Origin: Lingula anatina
Taxonomy: Eukaryota; Animalia; Brachiopoda
Length of the DNA stretch: 64,000 nt
Direction of reading: 5' to 3'
Assembly: GCA_051362555.1 (NCBI GenBank)
Contig: CM120646.1
Coordinates: 11,470,001-11,534,000, forward strand
In this document: positions 1,675 through 58,815 of the stretch, one piece after another
How positions within the stretch are numbered: the first letter of the stretch is position 1
Layout: each line of letters begins with the position of its first letter
The notes under the pieces: model-generated
Seen by the model: only the letters and a program-made list of their open reading frames with translations
What the model was told of the DNA's origin: nothing
Databases searched by the model: none
Program-made: the position numbers and the translations under genes

Positions 1675-2821
1675 CTAGTCATTTGGCAGGGGCTTTGCTA
1701 GATGACCCAAATACCGTGTTTGTGCGAGAAAATGGAACTGCCAAACTCCATTGGACACTGTTTATTGGGGAAAATGCAGGCTTGGCGTCGGTTCTCGCCA
1801 TGATCAAAAAGAGAGATACCCCCGGTACTCCGCTTTGTCAGTGGGTGAAGTTACGTGCACACGGGGAGGACAACCATTGCGACCGAGGATTGAACTTAAC
1901 AATCACCCCAGAACATATGCGTGTACCAGGTCCAACGAACATTACTGCTACGTTTTCCTTTAAGAACAAGGGGCGTGTCGATGATGGGATCTACGAGTGT
2001 CGTTTTGTGATTGACGAAATGTGGCACGAGATGCAAGTGTACCCGAGATATCTAGTGACAACGGGTAAGTTACTTGTGCGTTTAGTCCAGATGTTTGCAT
2101 TTGCTAGTATGTTATATGGTTGTTTTTTTATCAAAAGCATCAGATCCGATTCTTTAGTTTTATATAAAAGTGTAATTAATATATCACACTAAGCAATCCA
2201 TAAAGCAATTAAAGTCATAATAATTCTTCGTTTTGGGACAGATTTCTTGAGACAGATTGATGCTGACGCTCATGCATGTCAATCAAACAAACAATACTTT
2301 AGTTCAATTTTCGACTGCGGAAATTTCATATTGGATGAAATAACTGTTAACAAATTTAACTAGCAGTTTGTAAGCAACACAAAATCATAATCAGCTGCGC
2401 GTGCCAAACTAGTGAACAAAAGGACAGTTCGCTACGCGAGGCACGCGTTAGCATGGGTTCTAACCTCTTAAAGCTATAATCCTATAGCTGCAACAAACAA
2501 TGGGGACCTTCTGGCTGATGTATCACGCTGTTAATTACACCTAGTTACATCGGATTGTCTTGTCGCGCTGGACCACAGAAACCGGTGTCATGGGGTTCAC
2601 TCGTCTTAAGTATTGTGTTATTCCACCTAAGCTATTGTGTTTGTGCGTTCGAATTTTGAAGGGATTTATACGGCCCTCCAATGTTTGTCCGCCCCTTTCT
2701 ACTCACAAGATAGGGATTAAAACATTTCGAACGTTGTTACACCGGTGTACAACGGAAACAAAATTATTACTACCACGTATATAGCCATTTTATGCCTTTA
2801 TTATTCAAGTCTTGTTTCTGC

Positions 2822-2881
<60 letters not shown>

Positions 2882-3413
2882 AAAAAAAAACAAACAAACT
2901 ATACGTACGATGTGAATGGGGTTATTATGGAAATAAATGCTTGCCTGAATACAGGTATACACTAGTAGAAGAGGGTGATAATTAAACAATTTTTTTCGAT
3001 TAGTCCTCTATATGAGTCTGTAATAGTGGCAGCTTTTAAGTTAAAATAGCATTAAACCGTATCTTTTTTCTCAGTTGAACCAATTGTGACCTTGAATGCG
3101 ATTAACAACAACCCATTCATCACCGGCATCATCTGCCATGTTAGAGGTGGCCGTCCAAAGCCTGTTGAAACGATCCTTGTAAAGAATGGAACCGAAATAT
3201 CTCGCTCCAGACTTAAATGGCAAGAAGAAGCAGGGGACACAGATGGCGATGAGGCATCTTATTGCTCTTCAGTCCATTCTGTTGAAAACTCAGGTGGTCA
3301 GTTCAAGTGTAGAGTGGAACATGCCGATTACTTTTTTGACAGTTCCGAAGTGGACATCCCATTTAGAACACAAGGTGAACATGAACAGTGTAATTTCATA
3401 ATATTTCAATCTT

Positions 3414-3461
<48 letters not shown>

Positions 3462-4311
3462 AAATAAAAGTGATATTTTATTGAAATTATATCAATCGTC
3501 AAATCAATCGTTGTAATTTTAATTTTATATAAAATAATAAAACTATTTTATAAATTTTATATAATATTTAGCATATATTTCACTTCCTTTTTTGTTATTG
3601 GACAAATCAAAAATTTGTGAAATTTTTTTCTATATTCATATAGCCATTTAAATGTATTTATTATGCTAGTCTTTTTTTCTGCATTACTGTGTTTATAAAA
3701 AAAACTATATATACGATGTAAGTGGGGTTATTGTGAAAATAAATGCTTGCCTGAATACAACAACAAACTTAAAGAAACGCTCTAGACTTCAATGCCAAAG
3801 AGAGGTATTTGATACACATGACAATCTTATTGCTCTTCAATCCATTCTGTTAAAAACTCAGGCGGTCAATGTAAGTGTAAAGTGGAACATGCTGAGTACG
3901 TGGTTGACAGCGCAGAAGTTCAGAACATTTAACATTTAGAACAAAAGGTGAACCTGAGGAGTGTATTTCATATATTACAATCTCTTTCTCTCATATTGCA
4001 TGATGTTGGTAATATTTTAAACAGAACTAAAACTTATATTTACTTCAAATATCATTAATTATCATGGGCAATTTTTTCATCTCATTTTAGTAACCAATTC
4101 CATTAATTCTTTTCAATCTTTTAAACTATCGTCACCGACAGAAAATGAAACAAGTGCTCCATGGCATGAGATGAATGACAGAGCATTTGCAGTCAATACA
4201 GCGGTTAGTGTTATAGTAACACTTACATCAATTATATTTGTCCTTATTGTACCTGTAGTGGTACTTGTGTACCTACTATTGAGGCAAAGACGGACACACC
4301 AAAACGTTACG
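1675..4311 (+). CDS. IgSF receptor gene A (partial): V-like exon 1675-2064, C2-like exon 3075-3374, stalk/TM exon 4142-4311; signal exon upstream of the window, tail exon unresolved
   Basis: Canonical AG/GT boundaries in phase 1 (ttggtttcag|CT..ACGG|gtaagt; ttctcag|TT..CAAG|gtgaac; gacag|AA). V exon has DDGIYEC. C2 exon has ICHVRGGRPKP..FKCRVEH. TM is AVSVIVTLTSIIFVLIVPVVVLVYLLL followed by RQRR. Clear paralogy with B, D and E. Confidence 0.85.
2825..2877. repeat. (TA)n microsatellite
   Basis: Direct reading. Confidence 0.95.
3700..3960 (+). pseudogene. Degenerate partial duplicate of the C2 exon with part of its upstream intron, inside gene A intron
   Basis: 3706-3760 resembles 2897-2953. 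3777-3950 resembles the 3' two-thirds of the C2 exon (SRLQCQ..SGGQCKCKVEHAEYVVDSAEV) including the donor AAAG|gtgaac. The acceptor and 5' part are deleted and the frame is shifted. Confidence 0.75.
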
Positions 4312-6613: not shown

Positions 6614-9600
6614 ATGTTTCAGTTATTTTCCATTTACTTTAAAAGCAGAATCAAACTGGAGAAGGTGAAACAAATACATAACGTTTACTGGTTGATACTG
6701 GTAATACTAGGTAAGATCAATATCAATTTTATCGATGCACTAGTTCTGTATGTCAACATTGGATTGAATGGTGCTGCAAGAAATTGAGTCTTTTGAGTTT
6801 ATGAAAGTGTATGCCTCTGTAGACGTTAATTGTATCTTAAAAATAAGAAAATATGAGAAACAGATATACCTGTATAGACACAAGTACTGGTAACCTTACA
6901 TTCTGCATTGAAACGCATCATTTACCCTGTCTGCATAGTGTTGTTGGCCGTGACGGCGGGTGGGTTGTTGAATGGTTTAAATGCAATATCGATTTTTGTT
7001 GAAAAAAACCAGCAGGCACGCGACATTGCTTCAAAGTTTTAATATTCAATGCTGGTCTACATTGATTCGCCATAAGATTTATCAACATTTACCATAAGTT
7101 GATTACATACTGATTTTAAGATGACACAAACAACATTGATTTTAAATTTCTATATTCATATTGTAAATTGTATATAAGAAAACTGCTATAAATTAAATGG
7201 AATTACATACACTGTATATATTTCTGTATACAAAAACATGGCATAAAATAGGAAGTTACCTTTAAAAAGATTTCTGATGAACATTTTAATATTGTTAATT
7301 GTTAAAACAATATGTCCAAAAGTAGTTTTCCAATGAGAATTCTAATAAAAACTTTTCATTTTGTTGTGTTCACAAAATTAAAATCTAGCCTAAAGGAAAA
7401 TTTAGCAAATTTCAAATTATATCTCAACTTCACATCGCTGTGGTCGCAGTCCCTCTTGTGATTTCGTGATAGTTTGATATTTCTGATGTAATATTTGGGT
7501 CTCGAATGGAAAAAAACGTGTAGTTTATTCAGTACTGATTTTACTGTCTAAATTGTGTTTTATCACAATAATCAGTGACAATAATCAGTGAAAAGCAAAC
7601 TTAAGTCGCTCAAAAAAAAAAAAAAAAAAAAAAATGCTCCACACACTCGCTCAAAAAATAACTGCTTCATACAGAAGACTGCCATTTTTTTTACAACGTT
7701 ATACTTGTAAGTGATTAATTAAAGAAAAAAAACAGTGATGATTGAATTTGCAAAGTGGGTAAACGTTTCCACTGCTGTACACGTACATGTATGTTTTTTT
7801 TTTCCTTGTGTCAGCTTTTATTTACCAGGAATGAATCAATACAACATATTTGGAACATGATACAAGAAAATAAGAAATGTATCACCAGAAACAACTAAGT
7901 ACGAAAAACCTAAAAAAAAAAAAAAAAAAAAAAAACTTTTTTTTTTCCAGAATATACCAAAAATACACTAAATAATAACTAGGATAATTAACTAAACCTC
8001 TCACTCCCATACACGCACACATGCCTCTCACATTTGGAGCAACTACATAGTATTATCATTGTGACTTTGCCATTTCTATCAAGGTATAAAAAATAAAAAT
8101 GTAGTATACTATCACTTTTTACAACTACTATTTACAGAAAGGTAGACAATAGGCTAATAAGTCTAAGATACAAGGCTTTTTTTTTTTAGCCGTAATAAAA
8201 TAAGTATATGGATATATAAAAATACTAGTGTGAAGAAAAAAGAAACAAAGTGTAGACTTAATATAAATTACATTTTTAATGGACAGAATGGGAAACCCCA
8301 CATGTTTTAATTTTCGAAAATTAGCTTCACGTTCTCCCATTTCTCTGTGATTTCTAATCTTTTTTTCTCAGTCCGTAAATAATTGGAATATGTGTCTATA
8401 TCTCTATATGATTTTATAAATGTTTTTGTGTTTTTCCAGTTAGGGATTTCCAATTTTGTCCTACAGAGAGTAATATATTTTTTGATTAGAAGGATGACAA
8501 GATATATACCGGGCAATTGCTTATTCAGAGTACCCAGTACAAAATATTCTAGTTTTCTTTCTATCGTGAGTCCGCAATGTTTTTTCAAACTTCTGATCAA
8601 ACATGTCCAAATATTTTGCACATGGACACAGTCCCAAAATAAGTGTTTCAGTGTTTCTTTTGACAAATGACAAAAGGTACATTCTGCTGACTCCCTTCGT
8701 TTGCTTTTGTATAGAAAAGAATTTGTACAAAAAATCTTGTGGTTAATTTTAAACTGGAGGGCTTGTAGTCGAGTATCGTCGGTTTGTTCAAACGGTGCCC
8801 CAAAAATCGCCCCCCATATATCATCGTCGCTATGGTAATGCAGAGTGGACTCCCAGCGATTCTGATATCTGGGCACGTCCTTTTAAGGAACAATTTATAA
8901 AATACCTGTGATACTTTTTCATTCATCTGAATCAGTGAAATGTTTTCGTTTCTAGCTTCTGTTATGTTCTGACCATATGCCTTAATTAGTTTTCTCCAAT
9001 TTTGTGGTACGGAGTTTCTTATACTTAAGTGTTCGAGAAAGTTAAAGTTAGATTGATATTTTGCATTGATCTCATCTATAGTGTAAAACTCGCCTGAGAC
9101 ATTAATCAAATCGCATATAAAAAAGACACCTTTATCACACCACCTTTTCCAATAATAGGGGACATCATTAATTCTCACGTTTTCGTTATACCAAATAGGT
9201 TGTGATAAAATGTCGCTTGTCGACTCTGCGGGGCTATCTTGTAATTCTGCCCATGCAGAAGTAACGTTTTTCCAAAATGGATTGAAAATAAATTTTGTTT
9301 GTGAAAGGCCATTTTTCGTGAGATACCAAAAATTACGTCCCCCAATTTTTTCTAGGTTTTTCTTCAAAAGTACTTTCCATGCGCTGCTATGATTATCATT
9401 TAGATACTTTTTTACCCACGTAATTTTTAGGGATTTTGCTAAAAGCCTAAAGTCAGGAGCGCGCAGTCCTCCCTCTTCGTAATTTCTTTTCATGGTTGAT
9501 CTTTTTACTTTATCAATTGCGCTTCCCCAAATAAAAGCAAAAGTTATTTTTTCTAATTCCTTGAAGAAGATTTCCTCGGGAGTTGGTAAAACTGTGAGCA

Positions 9601-12600
9601 TTTGTATTAGCAGTGGCATAGCAATCGTTCGTACTACTACTATTTTACCTATCAAGGATAAAGTTCTAAAGGACCAATCATCGAGTACTTTTTTGTATTT
9701 ATGAAGTTTTTCAGAGAAGTTTTCATGGTATATATCTTCTTTGGACAAGTCGTATTTTATACCTAGGAGCTTGAATTTTCCTTCAAGATTCCATTTTAGT
9801 TCTAGTTTGGTTTTCATTGTTTCCCTTTCCCCCCTTTTTGATCCAATCCAAACTGTCTCAGTTTTATTAAAATTGGTGCGTAGTCCAGAACATTCTGCAA
9901 ATAAGGTTATGATCTCCATAGTTTTTTCCAGCAAAACTCTGTCATCACTTAATATAACCGTAGTGTCGTCTGCGTACTGACTTAGTAGATATTCATTTCC
10001 CTCGATAGTAATTCCTTTTATTTCTTGCTCATGCTTTAGTGCCGAACTGAGTAATTCCAATGATAAGATAAATAGATATGGGGACAAAGGGTCACCTTGT
10101 CTTACTCCTCTTTTGATATCAAAGAAATTGGACAAATGTCCGTTATTTTGTATTGAACTTGAAATATCCTTATATAGTGTTCTAAACCATCTAACTATTT
10201 TTTCCCCAAAATTATAAAAGTGAAGTGTTTTTTCAATGAAAACCCATTCCAAAGAATCGAAAGCTTTTTCCATGTCAAGTAGTAGTAAAACTCCGGATAT
10301 GTTTTCTTTTTCAGTTTTTTTCTATCAAATCGTTCACTAACCGAGTGCACTCCCCAATATATCGGCCTTTTAGAAATCCCAACTGCGTTTCACTTATAAT
10401 TCGACTGAGAAAAGGTTTTATTTTGTTTGCGATACACGCGGACGCAATTTTATAGTCGACGTTTAATAAACTTATAGGTCTCCAATTATTTAAATATTCT
10501 TTCTTTTTCTCCCCCTTCGGTAGACATGTTGTCAGACCTTGTCTTTGAGATATGGACATGCTTTGTATTTCGTATGAGTATCGAAACGATCGTAATAAAT
10601 AGTGTTTTATGTCAGGCCAAAACATCTTATAAAATTCAGCGGTGAAACCGTCAATTCCTGGAGATTTACCGTTTGGCATTTGTTTCAAAGCGGCTAGGCA
10701 TTCTTGTTCTGTAATGTTCGCGTCTATATTTTCATTTTCTCGCGGGAGTTTAGTGATATAGGGATTTTTATCGTTAAAGAAAATGTCAGAATGTTTTTTA
10801 ATGATTTTAGTACCTTTTGAGGAGTATAAATCTGGATAGTATCTTTTCTGTTCATTGACAATATCCTCAATTGCTTTAATTTCGGTTCCATTTTTAAGTA
10901 TTAGTTTAGGAATGCTTTTATCAACATAGTTTCGTTTTTCCAAATTACAGAAATACTTCGTACTTTTTTCACCCTCTACTTTCCACTTCGCTTTTGTTCT
11001 CATTATTATACCCTTTATTCTGTATTCTCTTAACTCTTTAAGTTCTGATTCCACCTTAAATATTTCACCCTTATCCAAATTTGTTCCAGTTGTAGCATAT
11101 AAGATTTTTAGTCTTTCTTCTAGGTCTTTTTCAGCTTTTTCTCTCTCTTTCTTTTTCTGTGTGGAATATCGAATCGAGTTGCCTCTTATTTTGAGTTTCA
11201 ACATCTCCCAAAGCAAGTGATCATTTATACTATACAAAGTTTCTGGATATTCAACAGTGTTTTCTGTTCTATAGTCATTTAAGACTTGTGTAATCGTTTC
11301 TTTTACTAGCAAGATGTAGTTTGGGTCTCCCAATAGACTGTTATTTAATTTCCACGTCCCTTTGCCTCTTTTCTGATTAATAAATCTAAATTCTATTGAT
11401 ATTGGTGAATGGTCAGAGCGGTATGCTAAATCAATGTCAGAATCAACTAAGTATTGCTGTAAGTCGGCCGAGATAAGAAAATAATCTAGGCGACTTTGTT
11501 TGTGATGAGGGCCATGCCACGTATATTTGTTTTCGTAAGGGTGTTGCTCTCTCCATCATCAATCAAATCAAAAGTATTCATTAGTGATTGGACAGTTTTA
11601 TTAGACTTTTCATTATTTTTATTCATGTAATTTCGCGTGTCCCTTACGTAATCAAGCGGAACATTCCAGTCACCGGCGATAATAATTGTAGTATTTCCAA
11701 GTGTGCTTAGTTTCCGTTCGATGTTTTTGAAAAATTCCGGTGAATCACTGTTAGGTCCATAAATTGCCGCGAGCGAAAGGCGCGTTTCTTGTACAGTTAT
11801 GTCCATGATGACAAAGTTCCCCTCAGGGTCTAATATCTTACTGTGTATTTTATATTGAAACGAATTTCGGAGAAGCACCATTACTCCCCTGCTTTTTGAA
11901 GAGAATGAACTAAAAATTACATTTCCACCCCATTCATTTCTCCACATATCTTCGGCATTTTTCCCACTGTGTGTATCTATTAGCAGGGCTACGTCATATT
12001 TTTTCCTACACTTGTCAAAAAAGTCTCTCCTTTTTACTTGATCTGAGCTCAACCCCCTGCAGTTCATGCACCCTATTTTAATACTCGCCATGTTCAATAA
12101 TTAGCAATAGGTAATGGTTATTATACTGGTGGTACCTTATCTGGTGTAAATAGTGATTTCTTATGAAACAAATTATCGTCTCTTGTATTCGAGTCCAGTA
12201 TGCTCCCACATCCATACACTTAAACATACATACAACATTACACGCCACATAGAGGTTACACTTACACACAATATTCTTCATGGCTGACTCAATTACCAGC
12301 TAGAAAAACCAGTGTCCATCGGTCAATACGATGCATAAGCATATATTTATAGTTAGTTCAATACACCGAATAAATGACATCTTGTTTATTTTCTTTCTTT
12401 ATCTTTTCGTCTATTATGTCAAATATATCAAATTTAATCTTGGTCTCGCTATTCTTTGCTTTTCCATAAACGTTCCCGTTGAAAAACCAGGCTTGTTCAA
12501 TTGACTCATTTTCATTCAGCCTGTGTAGAAGTTCGATATTTAATTTCGTCACATCGTCTGCAAATTTGATTCCTTTTCCGGACTTCTTCACAGCTGATCG

Positions 12601-15600
12601 TTTTTTCATAATACGCGCCTTCACGTCGTTATTTTTCACCTTCACTAGAATCGGTCTCTTTTGGCCCTGTTTTCCTGGTATTCTGTGGACTGCTAAAAGC
12701 TCATCCATGTTCACCTTGACATCCACTTCTTGTTGGAGTAGTTTTGCCACTGTATTGGTCGTGTTTTCATCTCTTAACTCCTTAACACCATAAATTTTAA
12801 TATTGTTTTTACGCGAGTACTGTTCATTATAGTTCGCTTTGATTTGTGCTGCTTTCGACATTTGGCACGCCTCTTCCGCCATTTTTGTTAACTTTGCAAT
12901 TTCCTTTTTATTTTCGTGTATTTTTTCTTTCAGTAGTTCATTTTCAACGGTTAAATGGTCATATCCATCTTTCAAAATCCCATACATCAATTCTAAAAAG
13001 CCCGAAAAAACGGTCTTTTCACAAAGTATAGTTTGAATCAAATATTTCCATCGATGCACGGTGTCTTCACGATACTGTCACTCACCCCGTACTTTTTTCT
13101 GGTGCGTGCATCCCTTGATCCGATGGCAAATTCCCGCAGCTCAGCAAACCACGTACTCCGCCCCGTCAGCCATCTTACATCCTTCACGTACATGTATGTT
13201 CCTTTTTGGGGTTAGACGATGGCGTACTTTTTTATCCATAGTTTCAAGAGAGTGATACTTTGCTACCAACTTCTTCATGTGGGACCATAATAAAATAATA
13301 AAATATAGTTTGTAATCTGTGCACTAAATATTCTAAGAACATGCCTGTGGCCTCATGTGCCGCACTAAATTAAAAATTCAATTATCGGTAGAAACATTTT
13401 TGTAATATCAGGTAAAAGATGCACTTTAAAATGCCCCTTATTGGTTAGAGATGTGTAGTTTGTGAAATCGCATATAGATAATCTCTTCATTCTGGGAAAA
13501 TATAGGGCAATGACTCTTTAAAACAAATTAGTGTTTATACAAGTATAATTTAATATGTCTCTTTCTCTCTTCTCTTTCTTTTACCTTCATGATCTTTGGG
13601 AAAGCGCTGCACTCTTAAGCGACCCAGAAGAATTATGTGCTGCACCTACAAAATAAATATGAAAACATTTAAAATGTAATTTAAAGGACTGTTTAAGAAG
13701 GGTAAATGGAGGATTATAGTTAAGAAGGCGTGAGTATAAGAAAACTATTATAGATCACCAGTATAAACTGTTTCATTCAAATTCAATTTTTAAAAGTTAT
13801 TCTTACTATCACAGTATCTTTGTCCGTTTATATATTTCTACGAATATCACAATCTATACACACAGATTTCATTAAATTTCTGTGCCTGGTTGTACCTCTT
13901 CACACATTATTGTGTTCATTTTTTTAAATTAATAATACTCCTAACCTTTCCATTCGAGACAAAGACAAACGCATTTTTAAAGTGTGTATGTGTGTGTTTG
14001 AGAAAGGGCTCCATGAGCTAACTATTCAACCGATAAAAAGATTTTCCCTTATGTGACCTGGAGGTTATGTTGGAGAAATGGCACGACACCTGTACATGTA
14101 TGTAATGTAAACATTCTCTCCGTAACCCGTAGCTGCTCACATTGTCAAAAAGGTACATATAAATACAAATTGATAAAAAACGCACTGAAAATGGCATTTC
14201 ATCATTTCAACATGTAATTGCATGTAGCACGCTTGCCCATCATATACCCGCAACAACCTTAGCAGATGCACAAATGATTCAAAAAGTCAAACAAATGACT
14301 GCCTTCCCTCGCTTTTTGGTGTATTCACGCGGCGCACTGTTAGGATAAATAGATTGCCCAAGATTTACGCAGTGCTGTTAAAGTAACTTTAGCGTGTAAA
14401 ATAAATAAAGCTTTCTTTAATAATTGCTAGGTGGCATCATACCCACACATCCACGCAAACATCCACGCACATTCACACGCGGTGAAATATATTAACAAGA
14501 TAGCAAAGCTGTCAAATGTACAGAGAAAAAAAGCAGAAAATCATAATGCACAAAATAGGATCCTGTCAATAATGCATTATTCCTAACTGCAAAGACAGCA
14601 TCAAATGTAATATTGCACAACAGGTAATACCGATGAAAGTAAATGCATAAGGCTTCAGACCCATGAGATTTTACATAAAACAAAAAATCAATTTACTGTT
14701 ATTTTTATATGAAGAACTAAGAAAGTTGTTGGCATGGGGAAATATCAATAGAACAATTTTAAATGTCCAATTTACCCCATTCTGAGATTCTGAACATCGT
14801 GAATGATTGAATCTGACAAACATTAATGATATGAGTTTATTTCCATTTTTGACACTATTACACAATACACGATAACGGGTTAACCATCATTCTTATGTAA
14901 TCAAATAAAATATTGTTAAGATGCGGTAAATGTACAAGGAACACTTTTAGGTACCTCATTAGTTCAAGAATGAGAATGTTAACATGCCCAAGAATTAAGA
15001 AAAACCATATATACACAAAAGGTAAAGCTTATTTTCTAACTTGATCTGTATTTTAGTAATATTAATCACTCCTGAATGTTTCAAGACAATAGGCCTATCA
15101 ATTTTCTTTGAAATGTGTTATCAGTGTTGTATTTAAGCCGAAAAAAGCTAAAAACAGCATAACTTTTAAGAAAATGGCCCGACCATGCGGATTTTCGAAC
15201 TAGACCTGCATATCATGCATATTTATTAGTTCTGTAAGTTTCAAGCCAAAAAATAAAATAGTATTCCACTTATCGTGTTATCGGTGTTGCATATATGTTG
15301 AAAAAAGTGAGAAAAAAAAAACAGCATAACTTATATAAAAATGGTCCGCTCATGCTGATTTTTTAACTTGACCTGCGTATTATGAATAATCATCAGTTCC
15401 GTAAGTTTCAAGCCAAAAGGTAAAACGGTTTTCCACTTATCGTGATATCGTGTTATCGGTAAAAGAGCACGGCGACGACGACGGCGACAACGACAGACGC
15501 AGGTGACGATCTTTGTCTGTACATAAAAATTACTTGCAATATCAAACTTCGTTTCAGCTAGTCATTTGGAAGCGGCTTTACAAGATGAACTAAATACCGT

Positions 15601-16692: not shown

Positions 16693-16751
<59 letters not shown>

Positions 16752-25099: not shown

Positions 25100-25130
25100 T
25101 TAAGTGTATCCAATAATATTTCCTTTAATT

Positions 25131-28490: not shown

Positions 28491-28618
28491 GTTACTTAAC
28501 TTACTTACTTACTTAGAATAAATATAAATAAATAAAATTAAATTAAAAATAAAGTAAAATAAAAAGCCGCGTTCCTCGTTTTATCTATCTGAATTTCAGC
28601 AACTATTTAGAAATCTTA

Positions 28619-30923: not shown

Positions 30924-31007
<84 letters not shown>

Positions 31008-31011
<4 letters not shown>

Positions 31012-33720: not shown

Positions 33721-33989
33721 TATATATAGACTTGACATTTAATATGGAATATTTCGGTTTCGAAGGTATACCTAGGTAAAAATGCGTTCTTTTATCAAAA
33801 AACTCCGATCTCATATAAGATTTGTGAATGGAGAACTGTGTAGTCAGGTGTGTCGCTACCAATTATCTGACTTTCATGTCTGTTGCGCTGCTACATTATG
33901 TAATGTGCAGTGATTTAATTGGGTAGTGTTCCTTTGGACTGGTCAAAGCTTGGCTTGGGCAAAGCTTGGTTCTGTCAAAAAAAGTATCC

Positions 33990-38540: not shown

Positions 38541-38574
<34 letters not shown>

Positions 38575-46459: not shown

Positions 46460-46511
<52 letters not shown>

Positions 46512-47250
46512 AACACACACATTAACACAAACGCTCACACAATAGTGCTGGTTACATAAATAGCGCTGGTTACATAAAAAACGAAACTAAAAATAATATT
46601 TATGTTTTTTATAATGTTTTTTTTACATTTCTCTTTTTTAATGTTTCAACGTTAACGGCAGAAAACGAAACAAGGGGACCAGGTCCTGTGAGAAATGACT
46701 GTGGTTGTACAGGCTACAGAGGCGAATTCTTCATACCATTTATCATTGCCTTAACAATAGAAATAGTAATGGTAATTGTAATGGCAATAATGCTAGCGTG
46801 GAAAATATTGAAACACGTGAAAAGCTACGGTAAGTTACACTCATTTCGGTTTGACCGATTCACTTATACCTTTTAAAAATAGCTACTTTGATGGGACTTT
46901 AAAAAACGTTGCACCCATTTTCTGTTTCAACTAAGCTTTGTTATGACATAACGTGTTGACAGTTGCAACGAGATAATATTGTGGAAGGCTTTGTACATTC
47001 GCCTGCTGCAAAACATGTAAACATGTTTCCTTCTCTTTAAAGTACTACACAGCATCATTGTTTTACAGATCGAGTTACGCATGTTTACAGAGGGGGAGAA
47101 AGGGAACAAGTTTGTGTCCTTAATATCGAGTACAGTGAACCTGGCATCCAAGTTACAGATGACCCAGAGGAACCTGTTCGGTTTAGAACAGACAAAGTTT
47201 CTGAAACAGCCGTCTTAAACCAGCCAAAGTCGGTCCCCAGCCCGAATTGA
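40940..47250 (+). CDS. IgSF receptor gene D (~373 aa): exons 40940-41036 (signal), 45324-45698 (V-like), 46130-46429 (C2-like), 46662-46829 (stalk CxC + TM), 47069-47250 (cytoplasmic)
   Basis: Phase-1 GT-AG introns, open frame to TGA at 47248-47250. TM FFIPFIIALTIEIVMVIVMAIMLAW. Tail SYDRVTHVYRGG..NIEYSEPG..SVPSPN*. Paralog of gene B. Confidence 0.85.
43619..45295 (+). mobile_element. HINE/pearl-like element at the same intronic position as the copy in gene B
   Basis: Same termini and flanks as 14494-15529, plus ~670 bp (about 43793-44464) absent from the gene B copy. Confidence 0.7.
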
Positions 47251-50200
47251 ATAGGTGAGGGAGACGAAAATCGAGCTGCCTAGATTACATGACTACTCTT
47301 TGGTAATAATAATTGTTGGTTTTAATACATCGTGGTGGATATTCATATTTTTAATTATTATTAAATCAACATTCACACGAATATCCGTACGTTTCACTGC
47401 GCTGTTGTCCTAAAATCGTTATTTTATGACCATACTTGATTTTAAAGTTATATATTTGATCACGCATTAACCTTTGGTGAAAAAATATCTCGATGGAGAT
47501 AAAAAGGAATAAACTTCAATGCGCTATAATTACGTCACCATCTAGTAAAGAAACCGGGGTTTCAACATGTGGCAATTTAATGAGCACTTTTTTAAATAGA
47601 AAATGGTTTTTACTCTAGCACTATAGCAACTATAGCATCATTTTAAACTTCTTCTTTATATATATATATGGAACTTTCCATAAAGTATCGAAACAACCTT
47701 ACGGTCTATAGTTATTCATTTATGGTTTATTTATTATTTTTATCATCATAATTACTTGAAAACCTGCGTGTTATGCAAAATTATTTATTTTGAGAGGTTT
47801 TTCTGCTTTTGTTAATTGTATGCACATGTCAAACTTAAAGTGTCTTTTGTAATGTGGTTTCTATTTTGTATGAATAAAATATTGGATGTTGTCCAGGATG
47901 TTTTAACAGTTTTATCAGTTTTTGCCTTTAACCTGGTAATATATGTTGTACTGGTATGTAATTAAATCCTAAATCTAGTAGTATCGAAGTTAAATTATCG
48001 ATTTACGCTAAACTAAGTTAACATTTTGCCTCGTGGTATTGTTGATTAACAATTATTCACGACTGAGAGACGCAACAATCATATCTTCGAATATTTTCAA
48101 CCTCCCGTTTTTTAAGAATTCTTTAAAGGAGGGGGCTTTGAAAGCTATCGACAGTCGACAAAATAGAGTTTAAGATCCTTTGTGTATCAACTAGTTGATT
48201 TTAGTTATCTGTTTTTTCTAGCTCTTTGTGAAACAGGGGCTAGTTTAGTTACGGGAGTCTTAATGTTAATTTTCATGCTCAACTGTAATCTTGATTGCCA
48301 ATTACCCCCCCCCCCCCCCGAAAAAAATAAAACTTAAAACGACAATTAAATGTGAGGATGCTTTGAAACTCGTCCTCAAATTTAATTTCCGACAACGCGC
48401 GGTTTGCATTATCGACCTGATGATTCGTGCACGTACTAACAAAAAAAACCTTCAAAACTGAAACCAGGAAATGATGCCCGTATTGAAAATAATTGAAAAC
48501 AGGCACACAATAAATATAAGGAAAATGTTGATAAGGACAGGCGGTTAACAGCATATATCGTTAAATATTAATCAGATTATGATGGTTCATATCATCAAAA
48601 TTTCAATACAAGACGACGAACACCGAGAACAGATATTACAGAAGTAAAAAATACCTAGTACAAATATTCGCTGTGGGATATAGACAGGTTCTGTAGTTTG
48701 TACATACATGTACTGAATGTGTGTGTGAGCGCAAGCACACTGTTATTTAAAGCCCTTATACATGTGTATTGATCAAACCTGTAACAAAAAAGATAAATAT
48801 ATAGCCATTTTGTGTGTGATGCAGTGACATCCAGTTGCATTGATTGCCCTCATGCTGTGATGGATAAAGAACATAAAAATCTATCTTCAGCTTTTATCCT
48901 TCCATTTTTACGCCTCCTAAATACTATGAAGAATTCAAGTTCTTTTTGTTTTTGTGAAAAATTCCACTTCTTTTTGGTTCTGTAAAGGAAATTATTTGTG
49001 CTTATTCTATTAACAGTACGCTAATCAAATAAGGACACATCTTAATCAACCATTCAAAAAATGAATTTTCCAGGAGTAAAGGACAATTTCCCTGTCCTTA
49101 ACCAATTGTTAATGAATCCATTCTGACATTCAAAGTTAGTCCCTGTTGTTTTCTAAAAAGTTTTTTTTTTTGTTTTATTCTCTGGAGAAATTATTACAAA
49201 GTAAAGCCATCTATGGAGGTCAGGCGATGTGATGGCAAGCACAAATTCCACAATTATAGCATTTACCTCCGTTTTGGTGGTAAAGCAGAATTGCTTATAT
49301 TTCTATGAGTTGTTGAAAATGTATTTATTGTAAAATGGATTTCTTACGAACAGGCGTTATCCCTTAAAACTCATAGCTATTTTTAATAGAAATGGTTATT
49401 CATTTCTACACCTGCAATGTTATAGGCGTGTGTCAAAGTATAAAAATATAACACAATGCGTTTTGATCTACCATATTGTGAATCTTAAGCCTAGGCTTGT
49501 TGTCGATCAATTCAGGCACAACTGTAATATAGTAGGTCAACCGATCCTGGGATTAGCAATCACGAACCTGAATATTGATCAGCTGATTTAGCTGTGGTGG
49601 TAACTTGTGATGCTTGCAGTTGACGTACTATAATAGTTTGCATTGATTTTGTGGTTGTATACTTTGTATGTAGTTTTTCATGGCGAATGTGGAAAGATCG
49701 GATTAACATTGCGGTGTCTAGATGGGATACGTAAATAAGGATTTTGCTGCTAATGCCTTCGTAAAGAAAATCTTGAGGGTAAATGCTGACGTACTGACAC
49801 ATATGCTATTTCTTTACTCAGGGTCAACTGAGTTAGTGATGCATGCGTGGTGGATTTGTTAACAGGTAAACCATCACACATTTCATATTGAGTTTGAAAA
49901 TAGTCTTTTGAAGCCAACAACATTGCCCTTTATTGGAGTTCACAAAAAAGGCAAACGTACTTGTGAAAATAAAGTCAATGCGTTCCCAAGGTCCATTTTA
50001 TTGCTATGTGAGTTTTGTTTGGTTAAGAAAGAATTCATTGCTTGTCTTTCGCTTTCAATTACACGCAGACATAGTAAAAAGTGGAAATTCCACGTCACTT
50101 TTCAATTAAGAGTATTGACAGTATTTATTTTTACCTGTTCACATATATGTTGGGGCGAAGTTGCACATCTACAACATGGCTACAAACCTTGATTCCAAAA

Positions 50201-51045
50201 GCCCTTTGGGCCGAATGTTTGTTACATATCCTGTATTCGCCAGTGAATATAAGACGTTCAATAAAGCTCAACCTTAGTCTTATCGACACATTCCCATTAC
50301 GGCACATGCACTGTAGCAGTTAACTTGAAAACAAAGTAAGACGAATAAAGGCACGATCTTGCCATTTTAACTCAAAAGCATGCTACGGACTCTGTTATAA
50401 CAACAATTAATCATTCATCTAGCCATATGTAGTGTTTATACTGCATTGATGAAAAAGATTCGCCGTTTTACTGACTAAGGTCAGACAGTATAAAGTATTA
50501 CCAGAGATTTATATGACACACACTGTACCTGTACCCCAGTACATATTTCGTTTAACATTTTAGTATAGATACATAAGACTAAGAATGTATGTGACTCACC
50601 AAATACAGCTCTTGTATTGGTTTTATCCAGTTAAAGTGGATGCAGCGTTTGCCTTCATTTCGAAGATAAAAATGCAATTTGGTCTTCAGATTGGTAGCAC
50701 TCCACCGAATCCATTCCAGTTCAGTGCAACGCATACCGGTACTTTCGAGCGTCCTACAAATGTGTCACCAACCTTACAGAATTAATGAAGGTGCTTGAAT
50801 TGTTCCCCTCGCCGTTTTAACATGTACTAGCTTTCTCTCAATACAAGGACAAGAGCAATATTGCAATTGCAAGGTACTGGGGTCATCAGTACGACATACG
50901 TACACTGTGACATGTTCATGTACACTGTATGAGTCACCTACATATACAATGGAAGTGTGGGGAATCACCACGTACATCATCGTACGTTAATTTTGGATTT
51001 TTTATTTTCGGTATCGTTACACAGATAAGAAGGTAACTCGACAAG

Positions 51046-53519
51046 ATGGTTCAGGCAATTTTACTACTGGTGATTTTGAATTGTTGGTTGGGTCCAGGTG
51101 AGCTGAATTTAGATTTTTTCAACTGCCAGAGTGCACAAAGGTCGTATAATCGTCTTGGGACCGAGGCTAATGATAGTTACACTGTTCCTTTGGCTGAAAA
51201 TAGTACATTTAAACTGTACTGGGACCAGGATCTCAGATTAATAATGGTCGCTTTTCTTCAGCACACAGGTACTGGTACAATGTAGAGCATGTAAATTCAT
51301 GTCATGAATTAGCTAGAGACATATGTGGATATACATGTATAGTGAAACCCCCATTTGTGACCCTGGTAGAGGGTAGCGTACATAACCCAGTTGTTAGCGT
51401 TTATAAGCGTACAATACTGTAACCTCGGCTGGATGCGATATGACGTCCTTGACCCCATTTCCAGAGATTAGATCGATCCAAACATTTAAGCCGGATTATC
51501 GGACAGTAATCTAGTGAGATTCCCCGCGGGGATAGATCGATCTAAAAGCTCTGGGAATACGCCCTTTGCTAAGATCACGACGAATAATTGTGTGGTCACA
51601 TGCTAATTGGGACGCGTAATGATTGGTCAAGATGATGCAACAAGTGCGGTAGAAGCACAAGTGGCTGTTATAACGGCACCTGGGCGACTCCTACTTATTA
51701 TTTCGCGTCATAAAGGGGATTGCGTCTAAGGCCACAATCTTGTATAAAATTGACATTAAATTGTAATCAAAACAGGGGCGGCATTACCCACCGTAAAACA
51801 GTGTCCGAAAAATTGATTAAAGAAAATACCGATCAAAATAATATTATTATTATTATTATATTAATATAATGTCTTAAAAGAAATTATGCATCACTGTTTA
51901 AGATGCACACTCGCTTTAAACACACGCACACGCACCCACACGGTTAAATTTCCATGCGATAATTTACGATTTCAAACGTGACACCCATGACAACTATTGA
52001 AGGTTTTATGTAACAGGGCTGATGAAGGTTGAAATATTGTGAACTCCGTTTCAAAACGTACATGAAAGCTATAGTATAAGAGAGAATTTCATTTTTAACA
52101 TTATCTTAATTTAAAACAACTGGATGAATCAAAACATTCACTCTGATATCAAAACTTGTTTCCAGCGGTTTTGTCTTCAGTGGCTTTGGAAGAACCCACA
52201 GACATAAATACCGTGTTTGTGCCTGTGAATGGAACTGCCAAACTTCAATGGTCACTGTTTATTGGGGAAAATGCAGGCAGGTCGTCGGCGAACGTCATGA
52301 TCAAAAAGAATAATTCTCTGCTTTGTCAGTGGGTTAAGGCACACTGGGAGGTAAACCAATGTGACCCAGGAATGAACTTAACAATCAGACCAGAACATGT
52401 GCGTGTACCAGGCCCAACCAACATTACTGCCACGTTTTCCTTTAGAAACAAAAGGCGCCTCGATGATGGGACCTACGAGTGCCGTTTTGTGATTGACGAA
52501 AAATGGGACGAAATTCAAATACTACGGAAACAGTTAGAAACAACGGGTAGGTTTTGTAGCAAGGTTATTACCTACAACTATGTGTAATTCTCGTTGCTGT
52601 TTTTCTGTTGAAAATATTGTGGCAATATATTTATATAACCCATGCTGAAATCAACATCGAAACAAATTTTACATCTGTTGATTTATTCATTTAACAAACC
52701 GACTGACCTTTACAAAAATATTTATCCCTTAAGTTAGTTTTTATTCAAACATCTTTTTCCTTTATTACGGAATGCTTTCGGATTTATCAAATAAATGGGA
52801 TTGCTAGAGTGGCATTTTTAAAACTTTGGACCTTATCTTTTCTCCTTAGCTGACCCAAATGTTACTATGATTGCGACTTACAACGACTCATCCAACACTA
52901 CCATTACGTGCTTTGTCAGTGGCGGCCGACCAAAACCTGTTGAAACGATCCTCTTGCTAAATGGAACCGAAATATCACGCTCTGCTCTCACATGCCAAGA
53001 GTGCACATACTGCCCCTATAATTCGAAGTGCTCTTCAATCCATTCCGTAGAAAAGTTTACCGGTATATACAAGTGCAGAGTGAAACTTGTCGAATACGTC
53101 GTTGACAGTGCCGAAGTGGACATCCCATTTACAACAAAAGATACCCGTAAGTAGTCCACTTTCAACAGATGACTTACAGAAATTTCTGTGATGATAATCA
53201 AAATCCCTCTCTCTCTCTTCTCTCGAAACTTATACCGATTTCTTTATAAATGTTTTTCATTTTCAAGAGCAACTCCTCACTGTTTTATTTATTTATTAGT
53301 TAATTTATTTATTTGTTTATTTAGTGTATCCAATATCATTTCCTTTAATTTTTCTTAATTATATTCAAACGACAGACAACCAAACAAGTGCTGTGAGAAA
53401 TGTCGGCGTGAATGTCGTGCAGACTGTAATAGCGGTATTATCAGTTCATGTTTTTGGACTGATAATAACTGTTGTACTGGTATATCGAGTTTGGAATCCT
53501 GTGAAAACCCCCAGTAAGT

Positions 53520-53554
<35 letters not shown>

Positions 53555-53999
53555 GGCAATTTTTGTACACCCTATAGGCCTACATCTGTATCAGTGTGAC
53601 TCGTTTACCTAATCCAGACAAAGCTACTTTAATAAGACTATTTAACTATACAAAAACTTTTGCCCATTTCTGTGGAAAAAAAGCTAAATTGTATCTTAAA
53701 GTGTTGTTATTTACAGGTTTTGTATGTGACTTTAATCTTTTGTTTGAATTCATAAATGTTTCCCACTTCTTTTGCACGACGTTTGTTTTATACTTCCAGC
53801 TAACGATGTTATACACCAGGCAGAAGAAGAAACGGAACACTGTGTAGCCCATTACACAGACTCCTCTGGTTCAGTGGAGATTGTCGCGCCTGCCGAAAAT
53901 GAAAACGAACCTTGCGTTTCCCAAAATCAGGCCCGTCTCACAGAAAATTTAAAGTCCTCTTCTGTGGCTAAAATGTTATTTAGTAAATTTACTGCGTGA
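51046..53999 (+). CDS. IgSF receptor gene E (~355 aa): exons 51046-51097 (signal), 52166-52546 (V-like), 52850-53146 (C2-like), 53376-53513 (TM), 53800-53999 (cytoplasmic)
   Basis: Signal MVQAILLLVILNCWLGP|AVLS. All introns phase 1 GT-AG, 1068 nt open to TGA. V has DDGTYEC. C2 has TCFVSGGRPKP..YKCRV. TM VVQTVIAVLSVHVFGLIITVVLVY. Confidence 0.88.
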
Positions 54000-56900
54000 C
54001 TTATTGAGTTGTTTTTCACAACAAATTAAAAAGCCAAGTTTTATCTATCTGAATTTCAGCAACTATCTAGAAATATTAGCTTACTTATAATTGGGAGCTG
54101 CTTAAATCAATATAAATCAGCAAAAACCCATCTAAAACTCATCTTGGAAATTAAGATAACTAAAAAAATTTTTTTTCCTTTTTTTGTCCGCTTGATGTCT
54201 GATGGTGACGTCCCAATACAAGATGATATTTTGTCATTACTTTAATTAATCTTGAATCCATTAGTACCGAGGATAAACTATCGAATTAAGTTAACAACAA
54301 ACTTAGTTTTCATTTTGCCTGGTTGTATTGTGTATAAATGATCATTCACGCCCCAGAGACGCAATTGCTATATATTTGAATATTCTCACGCACGAGGGAT
54401 AGGCGGCAAATATAAGATTTTCGATTGTTTGTGAAACAAACTCGGTCAGTAACAGAGTACATGTAGGCTTTGGTTTACCTTTGTGAAACTGGGGCCAGTC
54501 TCATTACGGCAGTCGGATGAAAAGATTAAAAAAAATTAGATTTGTCTTTATATTAAAACGTAAGAATTATTTATTATAGTTTGTAAGTCCTTGCTCTATT
54601 GGGCAATTTTATTTTTTTATGAAAATCGTTATAATGTTTTTATATAAAATATGTCTTTATATAGAATCTTTTGAGTAAGGTGATTTTATAAAACTAGAAT
54701 CGAAAATAGTAATTTCTTGAAACTCGTTGTCCTCCAAATATATCAATTTCCCACATTGCCTGGTACATGTATGCGTCATCGCCTGATGATAAAAATCGAT
54801 ACCAGCAATGATGCCCATATTGAAAGTAATTGAAAACAGACATACAATAATGATAAGGCAAATATTAAAATGACAATGGCGGTTTACATTATCTGTCATG
54901 AAATATTAAACATTGAATGACGCTTCATATCAACAAGAGTCCAGGTCAACATGATTAACAACGCCGAGAACGGACAGTATAGACACAAAAGATAAAGTTT
55001 GCCATAAAAGCACGATCCATATTTGGTTGATATATTAGTGTAAAAACGGGTCACACTGTGTGTGCGCATTGATCCAGATACGGTGTGAAGTTTTTCTATT
55101 GATCTTAGCTATGAAGATAAAATGTTAGCTGGCTGCAGTGTTTGCTTTCATGCGATATCAGCTGATTCAACTGTGCGACATATTTATCCAAAATGATATC
55201 AAAACTGACACTACGCGATACTATTTACCTTTACTGTGATCTAATGGCATTTTTTTTTTTTTTGCCATTTTATGAGTTATTGTGTCGCATGTGACAAGAT
55301 TGATTATACATATTTCAATGTATTGCGTATAGAAACATCAATATTATTTGTTTCTTATTGTTAATGTCTTCGTGTAAAAGACGTCAGCTAAATTTTTACG
55401 CTCTGCAGTAGCAGACGATGTTTTTAGTTAGGCTCTACGGTATTACTGTATTTGTATGGGGAAAATATATGCTGGTAATAATCCTTTCAAGCTCGTAAGG
55501 ACTCAAAGGGTGAACAAGCTGCCAAAAACCGTGCATTCCCATGGTTCATTTTTATTTTCATTCAATCTTTGTGTGGTTAAGAGCACAAATGTTTGAATGG
55601 GTACTTTTGACCTATACCCTGTTTGTTTCTCTTTCATTGCATGAATGCATAATCAACAATGATGTACTCGAATGGAATTTCCAGACTCTTTGTCCCTTTA
55701 TTTTCATTTGAAGGTGAATAACAAGTAATGACAGTCTATTTTTGATCTGGTGGAATTTCCATAGTAAGTTGGGTTTTTCCGTTGTGGTAGTTGCGTATGC
55801 CGAAGTTGCACATCTACCGCATGGGTCCGCCTTATTGGTACATATTTATTGACATCTTATTTTAGTTAAATCTAAAAATAAACATCACATAAAGAGGCAC
55901 ATTTTTACAAGCTATTTCGATAACTCAATTTTATTGAGGAAACAAAAGCGAAAGAAGCACGGTTGTCGCTTTTTTAAACCAGGCAATTTTTCATAATAAT
56001 TCCTTAATTTTTCCAAAATAAAATTCTACTTACCTTTAGCGGGGGATGCAGTTTTATTATAATCCACCTGAGCTTCATTGCAGAAGGTTATCTTCTTTGC
56101 CGCCTTCTCGATTCCCATGTCTCTAATGTTGCGGATTCGTTTCAGTTGAATGTCGCTTGCAATTACTGCAGCAGCTCCACGAAATTTTGCATATCCATAT
56201 CCATATTGTTTGGTGAATTTTGATTTTCCTCCGGTCCCTTTAATTGCACTAGTAGATTTTGAATTCAGGTGATTTTATTTTGTTGATTAAAACTACGGTC
56301 AGCTGAAAAGAATTAATGTTTAAATATCAAAATACATGTACAGTAAAATCTTAAAATAATATTGCATTAATTACACTCATTACATTATACAAGAATTAAA
56401 CTGATTACTGAGCATAAACTTATTACTTGTTTGTTAAGTCTTATATTATCTGCAAAGCTTAGTAAGCCACGTCACACACTAGAAGGTGCTCTTGATACTG
56501 CAGATGTAAGAGTGAATAATGGTAACAGTTATAGTGCAGGTTAGAGTTCACTTGATATAGGTCATATGTCATGATCCTTTCCTATTATAATTCATGAAAT
56601 CAGTCATTCGGTTACGTCGCACACACACACGAGCGCGCGCGCCTGCGCGTATAGCTAATATTTAACAAAATTGGGACATTTTAAAACAATACCAGAACAG
56701 TGGGTACCGGAGCTCGCGCCATTGTTTCATTGTTTAAAAGTCGATCGTCTCTGGGCGAATACGCAGTGTCCTTGTGTGCCCCACAAAGCATGTCTGAAAC
56801 CGTATAAAATATAAAAAAATGTAGACGGCCCAGTTCACCATAAAGACTTTCGATTTTTTTTCTTTTGTGAGGCAGTTGAGTATGTGAAGTTCAACAACTG

Positions 56901-58330
56901 CCACTACTGTGCTATCCAATATTTGAATAAAAGAACTTGATTTTTTTAATTCAGTATTTTTAGTAACAATGCTTAATAAATCAGATCAGATAGCAACAAC
57001 AAAATGATAATTTTTAGCTAAATTTCCAAGAGCGGAGTTTTAACAATACAAACATGAATAATTTTTAAAAATATAAATGAAAATTAATGAGTATAAAACA
57101 GATTGAAAGCAATGTAGACTAATATCTCAAAAGGACTTCATTTAAAAGGATATACTTTACAAAAGAAGTTTATAAACTTTCTACTATTTGACCGAGATGC
57201 CAAGCATATGACAAAGCGACTGTAATATTCTGGGTGTTTATTAGAAGTCATATTATATTTTGTAAACAGTAGGTGTGGCCGTCTTAATGGCTACAAAACT
57301 GCAATCATTTTAGGGTTGCTACTTTTCGCTTGCGTGAAAATAAATAAAATAAAATAAAAACTGGCCACGAAACTTGCACCACGCACATTTGAAGCATTCA
57401 GTTAGATGGTAATTCCACCTTTGATCCCTTTTTACTGCAATCTTTGAATTATTTTAATCGTCCTACATCCGATTCCCCATGCATGTTTGTAAGTTAATCA
57501 AGGATAGGAGAACTGCATGTAAAAACCTATCTATAATTGAACAGTTCTGAAGACATGAAATAGACCATATTTAGTATCATGTATAACAAAAATTAAGACC
57601 AGTAGTCGGACTTAGTTACATGTGGAAGAACGGGCTATTATATCTGCACTTTTAGTGTGTCGCATGTACTAGATCGGTTATATATTTGAATGTCTAGATT
57701 ATACTTCAATGATCAAGGTCCGTTTCGTGTGGTATATGTATTTGTGTAGAAAACCAGAGGCCTTATATGTAAGCACTAGCCGACGTTATCGTAAGCCAGA
57801 CCCTTTATCAAGTCATTATTTGTATGGTATATATGTTAACCAATAAAGCAAATTGATTTCAAAAATAGGTCATTCAAGTTAGCACAATTGCCCCTGATGT
57901 CAACAAGGTCAACATACTGTGAGAAATAATGCAATGCAGTGTCAGGGTTCACTTTAATTCAAAGTTTTTTTTTTTTTTGCTTCTCTTTCGCATTCCATTA
58001 TTCTCATTGCACGCATACACAGTTAACAGTCAACGTGGGGTTTACATTCTGTCTTTTTATATGAAATGTTGACAAAGGTTATTTTTAGCTCTGCCGAAGA
58101 TAAAAAACAATTTGAATTTCAGATTGGTAGCAGTCCAATGGATCCATTCCAATTTAGTGTAACACATACTGTCTAGCGTCCTACATATGTGTCACCAACC
58201 TTACAGAATTAATGTAGGTGCTTCAGTTGTTCCCCTTCGCAGTTTTTACATCCACTAGGTTTCTCTCAACGACAGGAGCTACATTACAATTTTAAGGTAC
58301 TGGGGTCAGACGGTACGGCATAATTGTGAC

Positions 58331-58598
58331 CTGGAGCGGATCCAGGATTATTTAAAGGTAAGGAGGGTGTCCGTGGATGTGAAGTCGACCCTCTCCCCCC
58401 TTGTCGGGGGTTTGGGGCCCGCTTAAGGACCCCGAAAAAATTGGTATTTTAGAGTGCAAAGAGTGCCATTTGGTACGGTTTAGAACTATGATTCAGCTAG
58501 TCAAAATTCTAATTTCAAGGGGACCATTGGCGTGATTTTTTAAGAAATTGAAGGGGGGGGGGGGCAGGACCGCTGACACCCCCCTAAATCCGCCACTG
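58331..58598. mobile_element. Small hAT-like MITE in the gene F upstream region
   Basis: Imperfect TIR CTGGAGCGGATCCAGG / CCTAAATCCGCCACTG, degenerate 8-bp flanking repeat ATTGTGAC/TTTGTCAC, absent from the homologous gene E upstream region. Confidence 0.6.
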
Positions 58599-58763
58599 TT
58601 TGTCACCTACATGCATTTACATGTACATGTAGCACTGTACAAGGGCCACGTAAATGTGGGGAATCACCCCCGTCATCGCTATATTTAATTGGGTTATTTT
58701 CTTAAGTTTCGGTATCATTATAAAATCGGAACATGTTTTCAAGTGAGAGGGTAACTGGACAGG

Positions 58764-58815
58764 ATGGGTCAAACAGTATTACTACTGGTGATTTTGAATT
58801 GTTGGTTGAGTCAAG
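58764..58815 (+). CDS. Signal-peptide exon of a further paralog (gene F, E-type); remaining exons not in the window
   Basis: ATG..MGQTVLLLVILNCWLSQ G|gtaagc, 52 nt, same length and phase as gene E exon 1. Flanks 58110-58980 are homologous to 50680-51270. Confidence 0.75.

Follow-up and report, generated by a model that had tools for sequence, protein, structure and literature searches.

A tandem family of V-like/C1-like immunoglobulin-superfamily genes in the brachiopod Lingula anatina, candidate cell-surface recognition receptors

Introduction

Clusters of variable immunoglobulin (Ig) receptor genes are known from vertebrates and from cnidarians, and in snails polymorphic genes that encode single-pass membrane proteins also occur in clusters; for brachiopods, none was found in the literature searched. 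SIRP, Siglec, CD300, and NITR are paired Ig receptors homogenised by gene conversion, and similar heads on unlike anchors and tails are the layout of such receptors. A V domain followed by a C1 domain is the scaffold of B7, butyrophilin, and antigen-receptor chains, the V domains of B7 and butyrophilin keeping the canonical disulfide; in CD2/SLAM proteins, encoded by clustered genes, a V domain that has no disulfide sits on top of a constant domain. The V-C1 tandem exists outside vertebrates as well, namely in the sponge SAML/RTK proteins (EV-C1; excerpt of PMC11926128). A review of the invertebrate Ig superfamily (IgSF) contains neither the word “brachiopod” nor the word “Lingula” (PMC11999971). 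The subject of this report is a tandem family of IgSF genes in the brachiopod Lingula anatina, located in a 64,000-nt stretch of contig CM120646.1 (assembly GCA_051362555.1, positions 11,470,001 to 11,534,000 of the forward strand), which is called “the window” hereafter and in which all coordinates are counted from its first letter.

Six loci, A to F, lie on the plus strand between positions 1675 (first base of the V exon of gene A) and 58815 (last base of the leader of locus F), and four of the six (A, B, D, and E) contain Ig exons. Our favoured, if tentative, reading is that they represent a Lingula family of spliced tandem genes whose single-pass membrane products carry two Ig domains, the outer one predicted to be V-like and the inner one likely C1-like; the products would be cell-surface recognition receptors, probably serving host defence, and would have been diversified by duplication and by exchange of V exons. 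The cluster is compact as well as expressed. Public protein sets contain just two models of it, both unnamed and one consisting of leader and V domain only, which makes such a family easy to miss. Literature searches, in which subscription journals were poorly covered, yielded no paper on it; immune genes of Lingula were reportedly surveyed in 2018 in such a journal, and that survey may mention these genes.

Gene models and splicing

Searching with single exons (tblastn) located four V-like exons, starting at 1675, 15558, 45324, and 52166, and four second-domain exons, starting at 3075, 16358, 46130, and 52850, all on the plus strand and with E-values among each other that, at 1e-28 to 1e-84, lie far outside what chance would give. 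AG/GT ends, a length divisible by three, and phase 1 are common to all eight, and B, D, and E form complete open models of 374, 373, and 355 aa without internal stops when the correct leader is used. A first-pass annotation of the same DNA had described a tandem same-strand cluster of at least six paralogs with one domain per phase-1 exon (A partial; B, D, and E intact; C a pseudogene; F a first exon), two subfamilies (A/B/D and C/E/F) with different leaders, and differing stalks, transmembrane (TM) segments, and tails. The cluster, the two leader types (97 nt in B/D, 52 nt in E/F), and the strong differences in TM segments and tails are borne out; of the six loci, C is a 3′ remnant and F a leader alone.

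Two RNA runs (X17 and X18) were mapped, together with two sets of DNA contigs (X2 and X9), onto the repeat-poor D region at 80% likeness. The V and C exons were covered at a depth of about 10–16 and the intron between them at a depth of 0, and V-C joints were present in both runs, with 8 reads in X17 (4 at the GT..AG site, 4 in a shifted register) and 6 in X18 (3 and 3). Loose read ends before the V exon, five reads in each run, match the window at 6688 and 41014 (0 expected by chance), and the leaders of B and D are therefore placed at 6614–6710 and 40940–41036. Eight reads of X17 run from the C exon into a stalk absent from the window (by eye it is none of those of A, B, D, and E). The genes are thus spliced and weakly expressed at the level of the family, mostly as variants other than D; expression of each single gene is not implied, because most reads are less than 90% alike to D. 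Further copies are also suggested by the DNA contigs: X2 contains the D TM region and 3′ flank with 0–1 differences at contig depths of 32–65, and over the V exon its summed depth is 323–637, with one variant letter on up to 8 contigs (up to 10 in X9), which points to more copies than the four of the window, depth sums not being copy numbers. X9 has no depth over the D TM exon, a hole that proves nothing; one of its contigs links the 3′ flank of D (48698) back to the V exon (45359), a hint of a rearranged or truncated paralog in that sample.

Gene A enters the window with its V-like exon (1675–2064; 390 nt, AG/GT ends, open). Since positions 1–167 match intron 1 of B at 7640–7802, the A leader is predicted to lie some 0.9 kb upstream of the first letter of the window. 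A C1-like exon (3075–3374; Pfam C1-set 24.9 bits, cut-off 21) and a stalk plus TM exon (4142–4311; 170 nt, ending in phase 0) follow; no tail homolog was found downstream of the latter, and just a few residues extend past the TM segment. Gene B consists of a leader exon (6614–6710; 97 nt, phase 1, GT donor), to which the leader of P0002, a Lingula protein introduced below, aligns, a V-like exon (15558–15932; AG/GT ends, part of the open model), a C1-like exon (16358–16657; Pfam C1-set 27.5 bits), a stalk plus TM exon with an uncharged TM segment (16945–17118), and a cytoplasmic tail exon that runs to the stop and lacks Tyr (17325–17503). Gene D has the same arrangement: a 97-nt leader exon (40940–41036), a V-like exon (45324–45698; 98.9% identical to that of B at the nucleotide level), a C1-like exon (46130–46429), a stalk plus TM exon with a Glu inside the TM segment (46662–46829), and a tail exon (47069–47250) with two Tyr and a third at the junction. 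The V exon of gene E finds a single protein, the unnamed L. anatina LOC106165109 (P0001 below; 342 aa, leader-V-C-TM-tail), which is 76.5% identical in amino acids to the 52-nt E leader exon (51046–51097), 73% to the V-like exon (52166–52546), and 92% to the second Ig exon (52850–53146; Pfam C1-set 17.3 bits, below the cut-off); the stalk plus TM exon (53376–53513) and the tail exon (53800–53999) complete the open E model.

Remnant C (27956–28467) comprises a TM exon with a stop and a lost donor and a tail exon with a stop and a frameshift, 92% and 93% identical in nucleotides to those of E; its leader, V, and C exons are absent. Locus F (58764–58815) is a leader exon 86.5% identical in nucleotides to that of E, and no V exon follows it in the remaining 5 kb of the window. 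TM segments and tails differ strongly among A, B/D, and E/C: the A TM segment shares 24–27% of its amino acids with those of B or D, and B and D share 64% in the TM segment and 67% in the tail. The C exon is spliced directly to the short stalk plus TM exon; a spacer exon resembling fibronectin type III (Fn3) is not present.

Domain folds and relatives

The AlphaFold2 model of P0001, made from a 9-row alignment, has a mean pLDDT value (the score predicted for the local distance difference test) of 62.7 (about 80 in domain 1) and contains two beta-sandwiches and one TM helix. A wide structural search with it returned CD48 (Z 13.4, root mean square deviation (rmsd) 5.0, 171 residues aligned), CD58 (13.0), butyrophilin (12.9), B7-H6 (12.8), PD-L1 (12.6), and nectin (12.6), all tied; Foldseek returned butyrophilins, TAPBPR, PD-L1, and antibody light chains. 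Domain 1 alone matches MPZ with a Z of about 12 (rmsd 2.0, 104 aligned), its best structural neighbours being V domains; the model of domain 1 shows the extra C′ and C′′ strands. Its neighbours in the Atlas are mostly V-set clusters; the top one is unnamed and mostly cnidarian (0.95; phylum known for 5 of 55), which is a lead only. In all six sequences (A, B, D, E, P0001, and P0002) a Trp occupies the position of the B-strand Cys, the strands being assigned from the model, and in B and D the F-strand Cys is replaced by Gly; a separate pair of Cys, 12–14 residues apart, is retained. The canonical V-set combination of B-F disulfide and C-strand Trp is not found, and Pfam V-set stays below its cut-off. 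Domain 1 is predicted to be a V-like Ig domain, and it lacks the canonical disulfide; this departure from the V-set pattern, which Alr V domains share, is taken as the mark of an atypical V.

Domain 2, folded alone, gave a mean pLDDT of 61.1, with one of five models converged and a poor G strand; it matches IgM with a Z of 10.2 (rmsd 2.9, 93 aligned). Pfam C1-set exceeds its cut-off in three of the four window exons and falls below it in P0001. Neighbours with C1 or B7-type constant domains make up 39 of 50 rows of the structural search and 47 of 47 Foldseek rows, by our own classification and with the PDB being rich in such chains; the best Foldseek E-value is 1.7e-3 and none is under 0.001. 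The other 11 structural rows are non-C1 (LILR, CHIR, KIR, ICAM-2, CD48, and others), and LILR and CHIR tie with the top. A short strand occupies the D position of the model, and the C-strand Trp is absent. The label “C2”, which the first-pass annotation had attached to this domain, is not supported: there is no Pfam C2-set match, and the evidence leans, without amounting to proof, towards a C1-like domain. Both domains match Ig folds in structural searches and are predicted to be Ig beta-sandwiches, hence members of the IgSF, on models of moderate confidence. A PDB search by sequence gave no significant match (best E 0.14, beta-2-microglobulin), and a homodimer prediction for the P0001 ectodomain scored 0.01 against a mark of 0.32, which gives no verdict.

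A profile search of 1.84 billion representatives produced five hits, one of them P0002 (L. anatina LOC106165093), which comprises a leader and a V domain; the remaining four, all V-C proteins from fish and frogs, matched weakly via general Ig motifs. No close match outside Lingula was found among these representatives, where other brachiopods and phoronids may be thinly covered, and two further sequence searches added no relatives; no Alr protein was among the sequence-search matches. The genes of P0001 and P0002 probably lie on the same scaffold. V identities among the six sequences are 64–74%, except for B/D with 98%, and neither of the two Lingula proteins equals a gene of the window. In the databases searched the family thus appears confined to Lingula, and no conserved one-to-one ortholog was found outside it.

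The tied fold matches bear on a different explanation, according to which these genes form a locally expanded non-immune family for adhesion or cell identity (neural, epithelial, or gamete contact), with V domains binding homo- or heterophilically in the manner of nectin, JAM, or CD2-type proteins. We regard this as unlikely, though it is the strongest competitor: nectin-1, nectin-3, MPZ, CD166, and JAML are among the tied matches, and neither immune tyrosine motifs nor positive selection was found. Conserved adhesion genes, however, usually retain orthologs, and here none was found outside Lingula; the fast turnover of TM segments and tails and the several remnants also speak against an adhesion family.

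Duplication, conversion, and selection

In a self-comparison of the window the segment containing B and C (13.2–30.9 kb) matches that containing D and E (42.3–55.9 kb) in many collinear pieces, which shows that a two-gene unit was duplicated; C would have lost its 5′ exons later. With tandem paralogs of different age, pseudogenes, and unit duplications, this is a birth-and-death multigene family; the earlier description of a lineage-specific, tandem birth-and-death IgSF family is supported, with products that are type-I membrane proteins. The identity of B and D drops from about 99% over intron 1 and the V exon to about 80% at the TM segment and tail, as would fit a conversion tract or an unequal crossover. 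Informative sites that group D with E versus A with D number 28:41 in the V exon and 9:59 in the C exon (Fisher p=4e-4), and sites at which P0001 sides with D versus E number 10:16 and 2:35, respectively (p=0.002). The V exons are mosaics between the subfamilies, and P0001 combines an E-type C domain with a patchwork V.

The ratio of nonsynonymous to synonymous divergence (dN/dS) of the C exon is 0.37–0.58, significantly below 1 in five of six pairs (Fisher p<0.05); this purifying selection indicates that the genes are maintained. Positive selection was not detected: dN significantly exceeded dS in none of 14 exon-pair tests (pairs below 45% amino acid identity were left out), and none of 12 V- or C-exon pairs had a dN/dS above 1. 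Between B and D the ratio is 1.14 for the TM segment, 0.87 for the tail, and 0.85 for the V exon. These last values would fit an unstable duplicated segment under weak selection. A modest task would then be left to one or two copies, the others would be subject to drift, conversion, and decay, and the differences in TM segments and tails would have no adaptive meaning. The death of C, F, and further fragments, the abundance of transposons in the region, and the rarity of reads close to D would agree with decay; yet B, D, and E keep open frames of five exons and GT-AG sites despite about 30% amino acid divergence in V, the C exon is constrained as just described, and several distinct spliced variants are expressed. 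We consider this reading rather improbable.

Among the pieces of X9 listed (16 of 542), differences from the window amount to 13–19% in exons versus 10–13% in flanks, so the divergence is not specific to exons, and L. anatina likely includes cryptic species (excerpt of PMC8146825). The diverged reads and contigs may stem from alleles, paralogs, or cryptic species alike, so that allelic hyperpolymorphism is just one possible source of the divergence. A further idea is a locus for allorecognition or gamete self/non-self recognition like that of Hydractinia Alr, where V alleles would be highly divergent and each would bind none but its match. The replacement of the B-strand Cys by a bulky aromatic residue recalls Alr domain 1 (excerpt of PMC9546547), as does the organization with one domain per exon, and the contrast between V (73%) and C (92%) of P0001 and E is the pattern expected of alleles. 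P0001 may, however, be a paralog; X9 exon pieces are about as far from the window as its flanks, and cryptic species are likely, as just mentioned; and the Fn3-like spacer and the immunoreceptor tyrosine-based activation (ITAM) or inhibition (ITIM) motifs are missing. Lingula is, moreover, solitary. Allorecognition is described for colonial encrusting animals (excerpt of PMC9546547), and for the Lingula cluster we think it highly improbable.

Proposed function

Recognition receptors are favoured because similar heads on unlike anchors and tails correspond to the layout of paired receptors. The ligand of the outer domain would be a protein carried by microbes, parasites, or other cells; gene conversion would spread V-exon sequence among paralogs whose stalks, TM helices, and tails stay different, and similar binding heads would thereby be coupled to different outputs, as in paired receptors. 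The anchors do contrast in this way: B pairs an uncharged TM segment with a tail exon that lacks Tyr, in D a Glu lies within the TM segment and the tail bears Tyr, and A has almost no tail. Recognition in host defence is the use that we hold most likely, with binding, ligand, and signalling all conjectural.

A number of observations weigh against recognition receptors of host defence. Neither ITIM, ITAM, nor the corresponding switch motif (ITSM) occurs in any of the four tails inspected (B, D, E, and P0001; about 70 aa each). The V-exon dN/dS of 0.53–0.94 never exceeds 1 and is as compatible with relaxed constraint as with mixed selection, and V variability resides in the N-terminus, the EF loop, and the G strand, with one of six columns variable in the BC loop and two of five in the FG loop (five sequences only). 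A runs test for tracts inside V is borderline (p=0.054). The list of fold matches also holds adhesion proteins (nectins, MPZ, and CD166), and a shared fold shows no function. Expression is very low in the RNA runs, and 71 of 98 reads on D in one run and 59 of 85 in the other are less than 90% alike to D, and at least 99% likeness is reached by 2 of 183. When four RNA runs were mapped at 90% likeness on 42,000–59,500 (17.5 kb), exon bins had a mean depth of ~0–2, expressed repeats dominated, and among the 15 joints listed of 141 none was at exon ends and no gene E splice joint was present. The first-pass annotation had proposed a lineage-specific variable receptor family for immune or self/non-self recognition; lineage specificity stands, and the function is putative at most, given the four motif-free tails, the 0 of 12 pairs with dN/dS above 1, and variation that is not concentrated in the BC and FG loops. 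None of the three findings which that annotation had named as refuting it was made: spliced transcripts exist, both domains match Ig folds, and no conserved one-to-one ortholog was found outside Lingula.

A bolder version is that a brachiopod independently built a polymorphic paired-type immune receptor complex, in which a V-C1 scaffold with a disulfide-less, Alr-like V would be diversified by gene conversion and haplotypes would differ in gene content; we judge this distinctly doubtful. The disulfide-less V and the C1-like second domain merit specialist attention. If domain 2 is truly C1, a V-C1 membrane protein of a protostome would join the sponge example and bear on the origin of the scaffold; if haplotypes are hyperdiverse, the cluster would open a way to study self recognition or the recognition between hosts and parasites in a phylum that has received little study. 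With neither result, it would be one more lineage-specific Ig expansion.

Remnants and repeats

A degenerate partial copy of the A C exon lies at 3778–3991 (plus strand; 76% to 3203–3420 by blastn, also seen by tblastn). An additional E-type TM-like segment occurs at about 47867–47962 downstream of D (open) and at 21090–21180 downstream of B (frameshifted); these may be further remnants or alternative TM exons. Right behind the leaders of E (51157–51222) and F (about 58860–58930) sit decayed pieces that look like the beginning of a V exon. A 70-nt signal-peptide-like stretch at 1433–1502, 14274–14343, and 43399–43468, followed by GA rather than GT, was considered as a leader with a non-canonical donor and rejected, since the RNA loose ends and P0002 match the GT-flanked exons at 6614 and 40940. 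In A its phase-1 translation looks like a good signal peptide, and in B and D its middle looks inverted (by eye); it is possibly a dead older leader exon.

Intron 1 of B harbours, in antisense at 7790–13185 (minus strand), a near full-length long interspersed nuclear element with ORF1-like, endonuclease, and reverse transcriptase pieces spread over several frames; it ends in poly-T and has what appears to be a short target duplication, and neither A nor D carries it at the corresponding site. A Tc1/mariner-like transposon at 22631–24027 has 29-bp inverted ends and broken helix-turn-helix and DDE pieces, and a short inverted copy of it lies near remnant C (28617–29034). The element at 31007–33721, with two direct repeats of 455 bp (99.8% identity) and TG...CA ends, looks like a young non-autonomous long terminal repeat element, and three internal open reading frames tested have no Pfam match. 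A repeat family with internal repeats of about 165 bp is found in intron 1 of both B and D as well as, in inverted orientation, within remnant C (25126–27933); it is abundant in RNA reads that originate elsewhere in the genome. From 61814 to 64000, and continuing past the window end, there is a satellite with a 558-bp higher-order unit (99% identity) built from 176–205-bp subunits.

Comparison with known systems

Hydractinia Alr resembles the Lingula cluster in being a tandem cluster of genes, putative genes, and pseudogenes for single-pass proteins with one domain per exon, in having V domains without the canonical disulfide (the Alr B-strand Cys is replaced by Trp, Phe, or Tyr), and in tails more divergent than the ectodomains (excerpt of PMC9546547). 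It differs by its I-set domains, its Fn3-like spacer, many tails with ITAM/ITIM, 41 members that share about 24% identity, and a role that has been proven, according to the same excerpt (PMC9546547); the Lingula genes have V plus a C1-like domain, a short stalk, no such motifs, V identities of 64–98%, and no sequence match to Alr. The Biomphalaria PTC1/PTC2 clusters are alike in being lophotrochozoan clusters of fast-changing genes for single-pass membrane proteins with whole-gene indels; PTC differs from the Lingula cluster in that divergence of its haplotypes and an association with parasite resistance have been demonstrated (excerpt of PMC7494358), and the likeness pointed out here is one of description. 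Sponge SAML/RTK proteins have a kinase tail that is absent from the Lingula proteins (excerpt of PMC11926128).

With CD2/SLAM proteins (CD48, CD58, NTB-A) the Lingula proteins share a top-tied fold match (Z 13.4 and 13.0 for CD48 and CD58), but domain 2 leans towards C1 and not C2, ITSM is missing, identity is 14%, and there is no evidence of orthology. B7, butyrophilin, and nectin-type proteins share the order of V, C1-like domain, and TM segment; the Lingula proteins have no B30.2 domain and 12–17% identity to them. Compared with paired Ig receptors, neither an ITIM-bearing partner nor a known adaptor is at hand in Lingula, and the pairing logic is what we infer from the layout; the likeness would lie in the near-identical outer domains of B and D, which are set on different TM segments and tails, one of the TM segments bearing a charged residue.

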